DNA from: a virus
Lineage: Duplodnaviria > Heunggongvirae > Uroviricota > Caudoviricetes
Reading direction: 5' to 3' (one strand)
Virus record (IMG/VR): IMGVR_UViG_2778261643_000010
Length of the DNA: 24,518 bases
Shown here in pieces: positions 5,485 through 8,182 of this stretch. Under the pieces are notes generated by a model. It did no database searches and was not told the DNA's origin. It was given only the letters and a program-made list of their open reading frames with translations. Positions within the stretch are counted from its first letter, which is position 1; each line of letters begins with the position of its first letter. The translations under genes and the position numbers were made by a program.

Positions 5485-5682
5485 GTGCTCTTTGATATAG
5501 CGCACATTAACATCGGGAGAATAATAGTGTCATTCAAGGTTAATTATGAATCGCTGGCATCGATCATGCCGCGTAATGAACAGGAAGCAGATGCTGAAGT
5601 GGACCCGGTAATCGCTGAAATGAATGCTCGCCTGGAGGCTGAATTTGCAGCTGAGAATGAACATACCACCCAGGGCGACTAG
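5485..5682 (+). CDS. Small hypothetical protein; true start probably GTG near 5527 (about 51 aa)
   Basis: Short ORF with GGGAGA six nt upstream of GTG at 5527. Confidence 0.3.
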   Translation: MLFDIAHINIGRIIVSFKVNYESLASIMPRNEQEADAEVDPVIAEMNARLEAEFAAENEHTTQGD

Positions 5683-6286
5683 GACTGTTTTTTGTGTCGG
5701 TAGCGGTCCGTCACTCACTCGTGAGGACTGTGCTGCTATAGAAAAAACTGGCTGTTCAATCATTGCGGTTAACAATTCCTGGCTGATGTTCGATGACATT
5801 TATGCCTTATACGCCGGTGATTTGTCATGGTGGAAGCAATACGGTTCCACCATACCGGGAGGGAGGTTCCGCAAAGTGACAGCCAACCTGGCGGCGGCGA
5901 AATCATTTTCGTTGGAGTACAGGCGATATTGTAGACCGGCGGAAGGGGTAAATAGCGGCGCGCAGGCTATCAGTCTGGCTGCTGAATCAGGGGCTGAAGT
6001 AGTGGTATTAGTCGGCTATGACTGTTCTCTGCAAAACGGCCTTCATTGGCATGGCGCGCACCCTCAAGCCCTACGGAATCCAACGCAGGTGTCTATTTCA
6101 AAATGGCAACAGCAGTTCCTGGATACCCGCAAAAAACACGCAGATTTACATATTTTGAATGCAAGTAGGAGCAGTGCAATTCAATGTTTCCCAAGAATAA
6201 ATTTAGAGGCAGTGATCGCGTTATTATCGTCGGCAGTGGCCCAAGCGCCGCAAACTTTGTTGCGCCGCGCGGAGTGCCGATTATAG
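5657..6286 (+). CDS. GSGPS-motif Rossmann-like protein (MptE/DUF115-like), paralog 1
   Basis: Contains FCVGSGPSLT...IIAVNNSW. The annotated ORF begins at 5624 but ATG 5657 is the first Met before the motif. The 3' end overlaps the next gene by about 100 bp. Confidence 0.45.
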   Translation: MNIPPRATRTVFCVGSGPSLTREDCAAIEKTGCSIIAVNNSWLMFDDIYALYAGDLSWWKQYGSTIPGGRFRKVTANLAAAKSFSLEYRRYCRPAEGVNSGAQAISLAAESGAEVVVLVGYDCSLQNGLHWHGAHPQALRNPTQVSISKWQQQFLDTRKKHADLHILNASRSSAIQCFPRINLEAVIALLSSAVAQAPQTLLRRAECRL

Positions 6287-6810
6287 CGGTCAATGGGGCT
6301 ATCGACTGGCTTAACCGCGCTTCTTATTTTTTCACACTTGATCCATCGCCAGACAATATGCGGCGCGTTGGTCGTGGCCGCCGTCGCCGTGGTGTTTGTT
6401 ATTGCATGGCACTACCCGATGTTAAAGAACGTGAAGTCAGAGACGGCATTCTGTGCTTCCGTCGTGTGGCTGAACGCGGCACAGAGCCAAAAAATACGAA
6501 TTCTCCCGAGTGGTGGGCGTGGCGCTGGTCCGCACATTTCGGCCTTTGCGAAGATGAGAATGAAATTGCCAGCGGCAATAGTGCATATGGTGCTCTGAAC
6601 CTGGCTTTCCATATCGGATTCAAACATGTAGCCCTGGTGGGCGTTGACGCTACGCAAGAACTACGCGTTCACTCCGGCGGCACGCCAAAAAATCTAAGTC
6701 ACCTGCCTTTGTTATTCCAGTCTGCGCGTGAACAGATTGACGTTGTTTCATGCGGGAAAATGGGAGGTATTCCGCAGATGACTCTTAAAGAATGGCTGAA
6801 GAATACATGA
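6184..6810 (+). CDS. GSGPS-motif Rossmann-like protein (MptE/DUF115-like), paralog 2
   Basis: Contains [12 protein letters not shown]...[10 protein letters not shown], the same motif arrangement as the upstream gene. Confidence 0.5.
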
Positions 6811-7484
6811 TGGCACCCACAATTTATCACCGTATCGACGGTACCAAATACAGGAATGTCTGGGTTGTTGGTGATCTGCATGGTTGCTACACCAGACTGA
6901 TGTCCGAACTCCATCGTGTGGATTTTGACCCGGCGCAGGATTTACTGATATCGGTCGGCGACCTTATCGATCGCGGTACTGAAAATGTCGAATGTCTGGA
7001 ACTATTGCAGATGCCCTGGTTCAGGGCAGTGATGGGGAACCATGAGCGGCTGATGATTGATGCGTTAAGTCCAGATGGCAACGTGAATAACTGGCTAATG
7101 AATGGCGGACAATGGTTCTTCATGCTGGACACTGATCAGGAAATATTAGCCTGGGCGCTGGTGGAGCTGGTAAAGCGTCTGCCCTATATCATTGAGTTGA
7201 ACACCGGGCAAGAAACTATCGTTATAGCCCATGCCGACTATCCGGATAATGAATACCAATTCGGTAAGGAGGTGCCGCTTTTCAACGTTGTCTGGGCGCG
7301 CGAGCGTATCAGTGATTCGATGGATGATATTGGTGGCGAAATTTCGGGCGCAGATCGTTTTATCTTTGGTCACACTCCGGTGAAAAGCCCGAAGACATTC
7401 TGGAATCAGCAGTATATCGACACTGGTGCCGTATTTTGCGGAAACCTGACATTGATGAAAGTGAAAGGTGATGGTGCAGCATGA
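6807..7484 (+). CDS. ppp: Ser/Thr protein phosphatase (PPP-family metallophosphatase; PrpA/NinI-like)
   Basis: Motifs GDLHGC, GDLIDRG and GNHE are present. ATG 6807 overlaps the upstream stop (ATGA). The annotated ORF starts at 6792. Confidence 0.8.
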
Positions 7485-8182
7485 AGATTGCTTTAGTTTT
7501 TCGCTCTGGTGGTGACTATAACGCTTCCGATGTGCAGTGGCTGGTTAATCAACTGCCAAAAGGCTATGAAATTATTTGCCTGACAGACCTGAAGCGTTTA
7601 CATGTACCTGGCGTCAAAGTTGTCCCATTGATCAACCAGTGGCAAAAGTGCCGTGGCTGGTGGGCGAAAATCGAGTTGTTCCGACCGGATATAACAGATG
7701 ATCTGTTCTATCTGGATTTGGACACAGTTATTGCCGGTGATATACGCCCAATCCTTGAGAATCCACCAACCAGCTTCACCATGCTTAGGGATTTTTACCA
7801 TCCACAATATCGTGGTAGCGGTGCCCTGTGGATACCAAATAGTGTAAAAGCGCATATCTGGAGTTCATTCTGGCAAGATCCGGAAGGTTGGATTTCTCGT
7901 TGTGTCACTACTGAGTGCTGGGGTGATCAGGGGTTCTTACGGAAGGTTATGGGCGATGATACACCAGCATTTCAGGATCTGTATCCAGGATGGTTTGTAA
8001 GTTACAAGGCCGATGTTGTGGAACCTGGTTCAAAATATGCGAGCGCGCGTTACTCCAGGGGGAATGGGGCATTACCAAAGGACTGCCGAATAATCTTTTT
8101 CCACGGCAAACCGCGACCTCGCGAAGTGTCAGAGGATTGGCTTCCCCTTATTAGCTCGTTTTTTGAGCGAGAATCAGAATAA
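7481..8182 (+). CDS. Putative GT-A-like glycosyltransferase (DxD motif)
   Basis: Contains [11 protein letters not shown] preceded by [12 protein letters not shown] overlap with the ppp stop. Confidence 0.4.

Follow-up and report, generated by a model that had tools for sequence, protein, structure and literature searches.

The window, by which is meant the whole 24,518-nt stretch of viral DNA analyzed here, is a P1-like phage-plasmid with ~98% identity to P1, itself among the most used phages in genetics. The genes pmgO, pmgP, ppp and pmgQ are 98.3% identical to their P1 namesakes at the DNA level, without gaps. Features of P1 were mapped by subtracting 601 from the L001 coordinates, an offset checked with pmgM and with a gapless match of 3001 nt. 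In the P1 record the prefix "pmg" is a mere annotation label, standing for "putative morphogenetic function". An initial annotation had described four ORFs here, namely two overlapping genes for proteins with a GSGPS motif, a Ser/Thr phosphatase and a DxD glycosyltransferase-like protein, and all four are present. The features of the locus are as follows.

4527..4545, plus strand: late promoter LPpmgL, placed according to the P1 annotation; transcription of pmgL and the following genes starts here and continues into the cassette
5428-5433 (-35) and 5449-5454 (-10): PpmgN, predicted sigma-70 promoter, mapped from the P1 annotation
5467-5483, minus strand: Oppp, operator of the C1 repressor, mapped from the P1 annotation; sequence AAATTAATTAGTGCACA
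5527..5682, plus strand: pmgN, 51 aa, overlapping the start of pmgO; phrog_2350 (unknown function)
5624..6286, plus strand: pmgO, starting at 5624 (P1 annotation) or 5657; predicted enzyme of the Maf / sialyltransferase / MptE fold
6167..6186, plus strand: start signals of pmgP nested in pmgO, from a 10-lineage DNA alignment and a start-codon survey
6184..6286, plus strand: dual-coding pmgO/pmgP overlap of 103 nt, from the ORF coordinates
6184..6810, plus strand: pmgP, second predicted enzyme of the Maf / sialyltransferase / MptE fold
6792..7484, plus strand: ppp, lambda-type (NinI-like) Ser/Thr protein phosphatase
7481..8182, plus strand: pmgQ, predicted divergent GT8-like GT-A glycosyltransferase

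The C1 operator lies at the cassette promoter, and the operon is therefore expected to be silent in the lysogen. No intrinsic terminator of note was found inside the operon, and six proteins compared with the PADLOC defence library gave zero matches. The small gene pmgN was seen in close P1 relatives only and falls outside the conserved cassette. The next gene after the cassette in P1, pmgR, is needed for head completion (PMC9024508). CRISPRi of pmgO, pmgP, ppp and pmgQ leaves the efficiency of plating at ~1, and the same source tabulates the four genes as nonessential, after an earlier P1 deletion survey (PMC10695390).

Nested and coupled reading frames

The overlap of about 100 bp between the two GSGPS genes had been suspected of hiding a frameshift or a misplaced start. 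It is real, spanning 103 nt, and is a genuine nested arrangement. pmgP is read in the -1 frame relative to pmgO; the AGGAG at 6167-6171 falls within Ser-Arg codons of PmgO, and the pmgP ATG at 6184-6186 spans the Gln/Cys codons of the PmgO CFP motif. Across ten aligned lineages the ATG is invariant and a GGAG-like element is kept 12-13 nt upstream, contrary to the suspicion. Since the ribosome binding site and ATG of pmgP lie inside conserved PmgO codons, translation of the two genes is coupled. The conserved core of PmgO stops near nt 6229, its last ~19 codons forming a variable tail. On the PmgP side, the N-terminal strand that bears GSGPS is part of the confidently modelled fold in the predicted structure and is kept even where pmgP does not follow pmgO (loci L003, L103 and L104). 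The starts of pmgP homologs in databases are often shifted downstream to dodge the overlap, and the GSGPS strand is then lost.

Could the overlap nevertheless serve a programmed -1 frameshift to a PmgO-PmgP fusion, or reflect a misannotated start or a sequencing frameshift? The -1 frame would suit such a reading, as would two slippery-type heptamers that the overlap contains near its beginning, in the frame of pmgO (T_TTC_CCA at 6187-6193 and A_AAT_TTA at 6199-6205) and a natural in-frame O+P fusion elsewhere (P0282). However, a slippery-type heptamer is absent from L002, L111 and L114, L113 has only a different one, and the recurring T_TTC_CCN is accounted for by the CFP/MFP codons. No stable RNA structure was found downstream of the heptamers (z=0.22), the overlap drifts in length from 7 to 157 nt across other loci, and in L003, L103, L104 and L115 the two genes stand apart with intervening genes or on opposite strands. 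Together with the start signals that pmgP keeps for itself, this makes a frameshift or an error in start or sequence extremely unlikely.

Of the ATGA junctions proposed to join the later genes, that of ppp and pmgQ at 7481-7484 is certain, and that of pmgP and ppp at 6807-6810 holds only with a ppp start at 6807. The longest ppp ORF, which is the one in the P1 annotation, begins at 6792 and overlaps pmgP by 19 nt; in a relative (L124) the longest ORF begins at the ATGA. The ATGA-coupled ATG at 6807 is the likely start of ppp. Translational coupling of the genes, as had been proposed, is supported.

Folds of the cassette proteins

PmgO (209 aa) and PmgP (208 aa) each consist of a central domain alone, with GSGPS encoded at nt 5699-5713 and 6232-6246, respectively. 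BLASTP relates them with E=0.003 only, across 40 N-terminal residues, while profile-profile comparison aligns 163 columns (97.5% probability, E=8.8e-12) and establishes them as paralogs. Each scores 35-60% to its own orthologs in distant phages, far above its similarity to the neighbour, so the duplication is ancient. The idea of a tandem duplication therefore stands as far as the genes are homologous neighbours, but the event is not recent. The PmgP family is large, with 542 clusters at 50% identity in a 1.84-billion-protein representative library.

For the predicted structures of both proteins the top match is a Maf glycosyltransferase, followed by several sialyltransferase families, and both have the three-layer alpha/beta core that Maf, CstI/II and MptE share. 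With PF01973 (MAF_flag10 / MptE-like), whose gathering threshold is 34.6 bits, PmgO and PmgP of the P1 type reach no more than 23.0 and 20.9 bits; two relatives, P0282 and P0329, pass with 44 bits, and a precomputed PF01973 match exists for many homologs. Profiles of the PmgO and PmgP families found nothing meaningful among PDB sequences. When aligned with hhalign to WaaZ of E. coli and to CstII (a query identical to 1ro7), only the central NSG...G-x-D motif was aligned, at 7-12% probability; for CstII (7%), RITSG...SGIDF fell on the NSG/NSA...G-x-D core and nothing else did. A Kdo-transferase or GT42 assignment is thus not possible from sequence. Downstream of the core there are invariant histidines (H130 and H132 in PmgO, H173 in PmgP), at best tentative counterparts of the catalytic His188 of CstII, an enzyme in which Tyr156 and Tyr162 bind phosphate. 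Judged by the structural models, PmgO and PmgP are enzymes with one domain each, of the Maf/sialyltransferase fold, that diverged from one another long ago and would act as glycosyltransferases.

How do they compare with the characterized members of this fold? The Maf glycosyltransferases, which transfer nonulosonic acids to flagellin, have three domains (632 aa in 5mu5) and belong to flagellar loci, whereas PmgO and PmgP are ~200-aa single domains lacking the N- and C-terminal domains and form a conserved pair with a GT8-like partner in phage structural modules, with no nonulosonic-acid synthesis genes nearby. Similarity to the Campylobacter sialyltransferases CstI/CstII (CAZy GT42) is not significant at the profile level, and the CstII lid region with the catalytic His188 has no clear counterpart. 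The usual hosts of P1 are not known to synthesize CMP-sialic acid, so that the database name "Alpha-2,3-sialyltransferase" is probably over-specific for these proteins and wrong in its specifics.

The same fold occurs in archaeal MptE (6-hydroxymethyl-7,8-dihydropterin pyrophosphokinase), and thiamin pyrophosphokinases are of a comparable type. PmgO and PmgP might accordingly be ATP-dependent pyrophosphokinases that activate a small molecule or a hydroxyl for PmgQ or another enzyme, a reading favored by the MptE name of the weakly matched Pfam family. We regard this as very improbable, given that Maf and then sialyltransferase families lead the structural matches, that the genes keep company with those for glycosyltransferase-like proteins and methyltransferases throughout, with covalent fusions to the GT8-like domain, and that pterin, folate and thiamin genes are absent from every annotated neighbourhood of the cassette.

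PmgQ (233 aa) carries a DLD motif (nt 7715-7723) and a C-terminal FHGKPRP with His208 at nt 8102-8104. Across 25 sequences of the family, D79-L-D81-T82 is invariant and aligns to the DAD of Gat1; H208-G209-x-P211-x-P213 is equally invariant, forming a variant motif, FHGxPRP, that aligns with ...NPKPWE of Gat1 and GPTKPWH of WaaO. The family profile matches GT8 structures in the PDB (Gat1 6mw5, E=1.2e-6; GlyE 5gvv, 5.8e-3; glycogenin, ~0.02), with the DxD, GDQ and H..KPW-like motifs in register in the alignments. PmgQ thus shares DxD, GDQ and a C-terminal H-x-x-x-(K/R)-P with GT8 enzymes (the Skp1 alpha-galactosyltransferase Gat1, GlyE, glycogenin, WaaO/WaaJ), but it is shorter and lies under the Pfam GT8 threshold: PF01501 is matched by 2 of the 25 members, with a best E of 0.033 that is below threshold, and P1 PmgQ itself has no Pfam match. 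It is assigned to phrog_1962, "glycosyltransferase". By its sequence motifs and profile, PmgQ is predicted to be a divergent GT8-like GT-A glycosyltransferase, in line with the original description of a DxD protein. Gat1, GlyE and glycogenin glycosylate proteins or protein-linked glycans. The prospect that the genes encode characterized morphogenetic proteins devoid of an enzymatic fold is not borne out, PmgO, PmgP and PmgQ all having enzymatic folds.

The Ser/Thr phosphatase was correctly recognized. The translation of ppp contains GDLHG, GDLIDRG and GNHE, the metal-binding motifs of the PPP family, and scores 59 bits with Metallophos PF00149 (cutoff 21.5), 272 bits with PRK11439 (under the equivalog cutoff of 326) and 5e-113 with phrog_246 (NinI-like). 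According to the P1 annotation it is 64% identical to lambda NinI (lambda-PP), and with all PPP metal-binding motifs and its phrog_246 assignment it is an ordinary member of that group.

Distribution of the cassette

The pmgO/pmgP/pmgQ set was found in ~35 distinct loci of Proteobacteria and in one Bacteroidota genome. A first scan of viral contigs returned 80 near-identical P1 loci, and the diversity came from genome, metagenome and re-ordered viral scans. P and Q occur together in every non-P1 locus with enough flanking sequence, and O in most. The hosts are Enterobacterales, Pseudomonas, Ochrobactrum, Zhongshania, Commensalibacter, Methylophilaceae, Brevundimonas and Sinomicrobium, all of them LPS-producing Gram-negative bacteria. 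The three genes are also joined in natural fusions: O+P (P0282), P+Q (P0291, P0357, P0429), Q+P (P0380) and Q+P+methyltransferase (P0341). In L003, L098, L106/108, L111, L113, L116 and L187 they are accompanied by a fourth protein, which has a DxD and weakly matches Nucleotid_trans, and in L006, L102 and L103 by methyltransferases. O, P and Q form a mobile three-enzyme unit.

Is the phosphatase part of this unit? The initial annotation had grouped all four genes in a single modification pathway. Tight coupling in P1, with ATGA at ppp/pmgQ and also at pmgP/ppp, and one shared C1-controlled promoter are consistent with this version. Against it, ppp is missing from all O/P/Q loci beyond the close P1 clade, distant P1-likes included (L004, L109, L193, L241, L244); its slot in L111 and L113 holds the fourth glycosyltransferase-like gene; phage D6 has ppp in common at the DNA level and not the flanking genes; and the closest relatives of Ppp are lambda NinI-type phosphatases from unrelated contexts. 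A pathway of all four genes is accordingly very doubtful. A candidate glycosylation-type set remains of it, and ppp is an unrelated lambda-type phosphatase, an insertion of the close P1 clade at a position where the cassette varies.

In about ten lineages the cassette lies directly downstream of the major capsid gene (L097, L100, L106, L107, L114, L209, L242, L251, L252, L256/257). Elsewhere it is flanked by the tail terminator and tail tube genes (L102) or by lysis and terminase genes (L002, L003, L245), or stands upstream of terminase (L115). In L006 a PmgO-like gene sits between head-tail connector genes with a collagen-like protein adjoining, and PmgP was not found in the stretch fetched. 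In Pseudescherichia chromosomes O, P and Q are interleaved with genes for intimin/invasin-type Big_1 adhesins, with zero phage genes. In Sinomicrobium (L103) the context is non-structural, the cassette lying between DNA polymerase/MazG and ribonucleotide reductase genes. No CMP-sugar synthesis genes were recognized among the annotated neighbours of the cassette.

The major capsid proteins encoded beside the cassette end in short Gly/Ser/Thr-containing C-terminal tails. Such tails are common in HK97-type capsid proteins, and they were therefore not used as evidence for an acceptor site.

A candidate system for virion or surface-protein glycosylation

That many phages carry the cassette, frequently next to the capsid gene, suggests that it probably decorates the virus particle with sugars. 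We give about an even chance to a reading in which the late-expressed cassette equips a virion or surface protein with a short glycan, possibly by means of host CMP-Kdo; donors and acceptor are what we infer from folds and gene contexts. PmgO and PmgP would take an ulosonic acid from its CMP-activated form and pass it on; the only such donor of E. coli K-12 is, to our knowledge, CMP-Kdo. PmgQ would use a UDP-hexose, presumably as a Mn2+-dependent, retaining enzyme. The three proteins probably cooperate, perhaps as a complex, and the short glycan would be made in the cytoplasm; in some relatives a methyltransferase or the fourth GT-A-like enzyme may tailor it. In P1 the cassette would be silent in the lysogen through the C1 operator and transcribed in lytic growth, with LPpmgL among its promoters. 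As acceptor, a protein exposed at the surface is most likely, which in phages would be one of the virion. Since P1 forms plaques in the laboratory without these genes, the glycan would serve as an accessory coat that might, for example, shield the particle or tune adsorption or stability.

There are precedents for both the chemistry and the setting. Maf enzymes, when expressed in E. coli, modify Ser/Thr of flagellin with Kdo drawn from the cell's own CMP-Kdo (PMC11339370). In the mycobacteriophages Che8 and Rita, glycans have been reported on capsid proteins (Freeman et al., 2023, as cited in PMC11256854), and according to that citing note these phages likewise encode glycosyltransferases that are dispensable for growth. 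Their hosts are of the Gram-positive type and their glycosylation is experimentally shown, whereas that of P1 is deduced from genes; the citing note itself does not mention a Maf-like pair (PMC11256854). As in phage virion glycosylation systems, the P1-type cassette lies in or beside virion structural genes.

Several observations weigh against this reading. PmgO and PmgP of P1 fall below the PF01973 threshold and PmgQ is without a Pfam match, the Sinomicrobium context is not structural, and enzymes of the LPS core fit GT8 and Kdo-transferase-like chemistry too. Late-operon positions also gather unrelated "moron" genes, so that context alone is no proof of a virion target. A P1 virion proteome paper makes no mention of glycosylation, at which the study was not aimed.

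In an alternative, the cassette alters a cell-envelope glycan, changing the LPS core during lytic growth and thereby keeping new particles from being lost to debris or limiting superinfection. The LPS core is the receptor of P1 and LPS is made by all named hosts. The outer-core transferases WaaO and WaaJ belong to GT8, and the DxD and H..KPW-like motifs of PmgQ are in register with WaaO. The N-terminus of PmgP faintly matches the model of the Kdo III transferase WaaZ (E=0.1), the NSA..G.D core can be aligned to WaaZ in a separate comparison, and the cassette proteins look soluble, as are peripheral enzymes of the LPS core. However, the WaaZ and WaaO similarities are far under significance (hhalign probability 5-12%), and repression by C1 in the lysogen argues against a function in lysogenic conversion. 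The recurrent placement in head/tail clusters and beside adhesin genes is unusual for envelope-modifying genes, and LPS made late would probably be short of time to reach the surface. We consider modification of the LPS unlikely, while granting it some weight.

DNA had also been named as a possible target, and glycosylation of the phage genome would be an anti-restriction hypermodification. Glycosyltransferases of phages acting on DNA are a familiar class, Mom of Mu is a precedent for late-expressed DNA modification, and the Sinomicrobium cassette lies among DNA polymerase, MazG-like and ribonucleotide reductase genes. Yet no genes for hydroxymethylated bases occur beside the cassette in any annotated neighbourhood, the contexts are mostly virion-structural, the cassette is carried mostly by temperate phages and prophages, cutting and cloning of P1 DNA is routine, and a chromosomal adhesin island would make no sense for DNA modification. 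Antirestriction was unchanged in 24 of 29 P1 single-gene knockouts (PMC9024508), a survey in which all four genes were nonessential according to a later table (PMC10695390). A DNA target can hardly be right.

Returning to glycosylation of a virion or surface protein, a more specific form can be proposed as a long shot: P1 and many Gram-negative phages would coat a virion protein with a Kdo-containing O-linked glycan, the Maf-like pair taking Kdo from CMP-Kdo and the GT8-like enzyme extending it, and bacteria would have borrowed the cassette for adhesins of the intimin/invasin type. If true, such a coat would be a first on two counts, as Ser/Thr-O-Kdo glycosylation of a protein in nature and as a virion glycosylation system among phages that infect Gram-negative bacteria. 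The minimal Maf-like enzymes are potential tools for protein glycoengineering in E. coli. For P1, genes that carried placeholder labels now have a defined, testable hypothesis. If its virions are glycosylated, particles of Gram-negative phages may bear glycan coats, with consequences for antibody recognition in phage therapy, for stability and for adsorption.

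Locus identity and the nested pmgP start

The ~3-kb stretch around the genes in question corresponds to positions 79,368-82,368 of phage P1 (98.3% DNA identity, no gaps) and is 97.9-98.8% identical to P7, RCS47, SJ46 and other P1-like phage-plasmids. Its four ORFs are P1 pmgO, pmgP, ppp and pmgQ (hdmB, hdmC, ppp and hdmD in P7), flanked 5' by pmgL, pmgM (VRR-NUC) and the 51-aa pmgN, and 3' by pmgR and pmgS. Two regulatory elements of the P1 record map onto the window:

4527-4545, late promoter LPpmgL, ahead of pmgL
5428-5483, predicted sigma-70 promoter and C1 repressor operator Oppp, ahead of pmgN

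Given this operator and late promoter, the four genes should be silent in the lysogen and active in lytic growth. CRISPRi knock-down leaves the efficiency of plating near 1 for all four, which are also tabulated as nonessential in an earlier deletion survey (PMC10695390); of the 29 single-gene knockouts in that survey, 24 were impaired neither in plaque formation nor in antirestriction, whereas pmgR is required for head completion (PMC9024508). CRISPRi scored the neighboring pmgN as essential, possibly through a polar effect, whereas deletion classed it as nonessential (PMC10695390). It lies at 5527-5682 and overlaps pmgO by 59 nt or 26 nt, depending on whether pmgO starts at 5624 or 5657, neither of which has a good Shine-Dalgarno sequence. 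Further 3', the product of pap (9820-10326), a putative acid phosphatase in P1, matches the polynucleotide kinase-phosphatase HAD-type phosphatase domain PF25109 (44 bits), and downstream of pap the minus strand carries a complete type I restriction-modification system (10591-16638; HsdR with an EcoR124 C-terminal domain, HsdS and HsdM). The aligned fraction of the window is only ~71% for most P1-type records listed, including P7 and the P1-named MH422554, MH445380 and MH445381, and 85% for phage vB_EcoM-673R5, which annotates hsd genes in the corresponding region.

The initial annotation correctly described a GSGPS motif in each of two overlapping frames:

5699-5713, GSGPS motif of PmgO
6232-6246, GSGPS motif of PmgP

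The overlap measures 103 nt (6184-6286); relative to pmgO, pmgP is read in the -1 frame. In PmgO homologs the conserved core finishes at ...CFPRxNLExxIxxLS, near nt 6229, and the final ~19 residues in P1 form a variable tail. The N-terminal strand and GSGPS are kept in all PmgP homologs, and the AF2 model of PmgP places a strand at residues 12-16, residues 11-30 having a block-mean pLDDT of 95-96. Since this segment is both conserved and confidently modeled, the pmgP start cannot be shifted 3' of the overlap. Among 16 loci with adjacent pmgO and pmgP, the overlap varies from 7 to 157 nt and the relative frame is the same in all except one, a Pseudomonas prophage (L106). A DNA alignment of ten lineages across the overlap, the check proposed initially, reveals an invariant pmgP ATG with a GGAG-like element 12-13 nt upstream. 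The ATG joins the last base of one PmgO codon to TG from the Cys codon of the conserved CFP motif; GGAG falls within the PmgO N-x-S-R motif, in its invariant Ser-Arg codons. Conserved PmgO codons thus contain the pmgP translation start, with only the position of the pmgO stop drifting.

This nested start contradicts the earlier suspicion that the overlap hides a misplaced start or a frameshift. A programmed frameshift fusion could draw on two heptamers of slippery form in P1, but such a heptamer is absent from loci L002, L111 and L114, L113 has only a different one, and the RNA 3' of the heptamers does not fold more stably than shuffled controls (z=0.22). Moreover, pmgO and pmgP are separated or on opposite strands in L003, L103, L104 and L115. 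With the heptamers not conserved, no stable RNA and the genes separable, neither frameshifting nor mis-annotation is supported. Conversely, some database pmgP homologs begin after the overlap and lose the GSGPS strand, as does the called gene in a C. rodentium prophage. In L002 the pmgP ORF spans 8510-9130 and the called gene 8600-9130. Shortened calls, which avoid the overlap or lose the N-terminus and hence the GSGPS strand, are frequent among pmgP/pmgO homologs, as in protein clusters P0123 (178 aa) and P0002-P0004 (161-174 aa), some with hundreds of members (P0123, 373; P0002, 173; P0004, 108).

Enzyme families of PmgO, PmgP and PmgQ

Against Pfam, PmgO and PmgP give only sub-threshold matches to the MptE-like family (PF01973), a threshold that some of their relatives exceed, and PmgQ gives no match. 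The PHROGs labels for PmgO, PmgP and PmgQ are "alpha-2,3-sialyltransferase", unknown and "glycosyltransferase", respectively. The initial annotation took the two GSGPS proteins for a tandem duplication. Their homology is borne out by profile-profile alignment (97.5% probability, E=8.8e-12, 163 columns; profiles built from 28 homologs each), whereas direct BLASTP aligns only the N-terminal 40 residues (E=0.003). The duplication is not a recent one: because identity to orthologs in very distant phages is 35-60% for each protein but only ~20% between the two, they are ancient paralogs.

Structural matches of the PmgO and PmgP folds (scores in two columns)
Maf glycosyltransferase 5mu5: 13.9; 13.5
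Archaeal MptE pyrophosphokinase: 11.2; 12.8
CstI sialyltransferase: 10.6; 10.9
SteA: 10.5; 9.5
Thiamin pyrophosphokinases: 7.3-10.0; 7.2-9.1
Mammalian sialyltransferases: 7.1-8.8; 6.8-9.2

For both proteins the top match is a Maf glycosyltransferase. Pyrophosphokinase chemistry, like that of MptE or the thiamin pyrophosphokinases, is a rival reading; alignments with CstII and the E. coli Kdo transferase WaaZ cover only the central motif at low probability, and residues alone did not separate a CMP-sugar transferase from a pyrophosphokinase.

For PmgQ, the proposal of a DxD glycosyltransferase-like protein holds. Its family profile matches the GT8 structures Gat1 (E=1.2e-6), GlyE (5.8e-3) and glycogenin (~0.02), and its invariant DLD, GDQ and FHGxPRP align to the GT8 DxD, GD and H..KPW motifs. 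These matches argue that PmgQ is a divergent GT8-like GT-A enzyme.

A mobile three-gene unit without ppp

Ppp matches Metallophos strongly and contains GDxHG, GDxxDRG and GNHE, as expected of the Ser/Thr phosphatase described initially. Its inclusion in a four-gene modification pathway had been linked to ATGA junctions. That between ppp and pmgQ is present (7481-7484); the one between pmgP and ppp (6807-6810) exists only if ppp starts at 6807, as the longest ORF, which is the P1 annotation, begins 15 nt earlier, at 6792. The start at 6807 is more likely, since in L124, a close P1 relative, the longest ppp ORF begins at the ATGA. Against a four-gene pathway, Ppp is confined to close relatives of P1 (L087-L089, L123, L124, L140, L148, L222) and is absent from the distant P1-like L004, L109, L193, L241 and L244, where pmgP runs straight into pmgQ. 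Between P and Q, L111 and L113 instead encode a fourth protein, which has a DxD motif and weakly matches Nucleotid_trans, and phage D6 shares ppp with the window at the DNA level, but not the neighboring genes. O, P and Q are one unit, of which ppp is not part.

Homolog searches and locus retrieval yielded ~35 distinct non-P1 loci. All of those with enough flanking sequence encode both a PmgP and a PmgQ homolog, and most also PmgO, in variable order (O-P-Q, O-Q-P, Q-P or dispersed). Named hosts are Citrobacter, Pseudescherichia, Buttiauxella, Erwinia, Chimaeribacter, Pantoea, Pseudomonas, Ochrobactrum, Zhongshania, Commensalibacter, Methylophilaceae, Brevundimonas and Sinomicrobium (Bacteroidota). 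Searched in full by HMMER, the PmgP profile gives 542 clusters at 50% identity, the top matches of which include natural fusions:

PmgO+PmgP: P0282
PmgP+PmgQ: P0291, P0357, P0429
PmgQ+PmgP: P0380
PmgQ+PmgP+SAM-methyltransferase (C-terminal): P0341
Methyltransferase+PmgP: P0382
PmgP followed by a second, very divergent MptE-like domain: P0400, P0407, P0428

Separate methyltransferase genes lie within the cassette in L006, L102 and L103. Such fusions and methyltransferases are the signature of a multi-enzyme glycan-building pathway. The DxD protein of L111 and L113 belongs to a fourth cassette family (188-193 aa, DxD-type motif, weak match to Nucleotid_trans, PF03407), observed at:

L111 8555-9139 and L113 8555-9139, in the ppp slot between pmgP and pmgQ
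L106 11254-11835
L003 8874-9440
L116 9222-9797
L098 8636-9184

The cassette closely follows the major capsid gene in HK97-type prophages of Pseudomonas (L106/L108), Ochrobactrum (L107), Zhongshania (L097) and Methylophilaceae (L100) and in metagenomic loci (L114, L209, L242, L251, L252, L256/257). In L102 it separates the tail terminator gene from that of the tail tube. Its position in lambdoid and other prophages (L002/L110/L112, L003, L245) is between the lysis cassette and terminase. In L115 terminase follows closely, but no lysis genes were identified, and in L101 a remnant adjoins a lysozyme gene. In L006 the PmgO homolog lies between head-tail connector genes and adjoins a collagen-like protein, a possible glycosylation substrate; at 5415-8670 this 304-aa collagen-repeat (GEx) protein of the head module is followed by a connector gene, the PmgO homolog, an unassigned 286-aa protein and a methyltransferase-like protein. 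In L106 the four-gene cassette is directly followed, ahead of the head-tail connector gene, by a gene for a 93-aa protein (11843-12124) whose N-terminal half is rich in Ser/Thr, a candidate decoration protein or acceptor. The sole non-structural phage context seen is a Sinomicrobium phage region (L103, 5800-12095), where an O-Q-P cassette with an FkbM methyltransferase lies between DNA polymerase/MazG-like and ribonucleotide reductase genes. In five Pseudescherichia genomes the genes are chromosomal, with no phage genes nearby, and alternate with genes for an inverse autotransporter of intimin/invasin type (1166 aa) and for other Big_1-domain proteins (L104 2241-15359; L091-L095 are arranged alike). 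No phage genes were found within 10 kb of the L104 island, and for three of its Big_1-island proteins inspection by eye shows no obvious signal peptide. Common to these contexts are surface-exposed proteins made simultaneously with the enzymes.

Proposed function

PmgQ may act as a retaining, metal-dependent enzyme with a UDP-hexose donor, and PmgO/PmgP as sialyltransferase-like enzymes with a CMP-ulosonic-acid donor, together assembling a short glycan on a cytoplasmic protein, which in phages would be one destined for the virion. That PmgO and PmgP act as a pair is suggested by the O+P fusion found elsewhere, and their nesting in P1 would couple synthesis of the two. As no CMP-sugar synthesis genes were recognized among the annotated neighbors of the cassette and all named hosts produce LPS, the universal CMP-Kdo is a reasonable guess for the donor. 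When expressed in E. coli, Maf enzymes add Kdo to Ser/Thr of flagellin (PMC11339370), and virion glycosylation has been reported for mycobacteriophages, in work cited in PMC11256854. We consider it probable that O/P/Q is a glycosyltransferase cassette, and give about even chances to the full statement with a protein (virion) acceptor. Its rivals are modification of LPS or a receptor, set beside the LPS-producing hosts, modification of DNA, set beside the L103 location, and the pyrophosphokinase chemistry, frameshift fusion and four-gene pathway with the phosphatase considered above; the surface-protein genes shared by the other contexts fit a protein acceptor.

The genes were already annotated, and RefSeq hints at glycosyltransferases. 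What appears to be new is that O/P/Q form a conserved and mobile cassette with natural fusions, that it is systematically placed in virion gene clusters and in an adhesin island, that ppp lies outside it, and that the overlap is a nested, hard-wired start: we found no literature on these points, and the papers found that name the genes do so only in tables or in passing. Glycosylation by this cassette would not amount to a new principle, yet it is a prediction open to direct test in a model phage.
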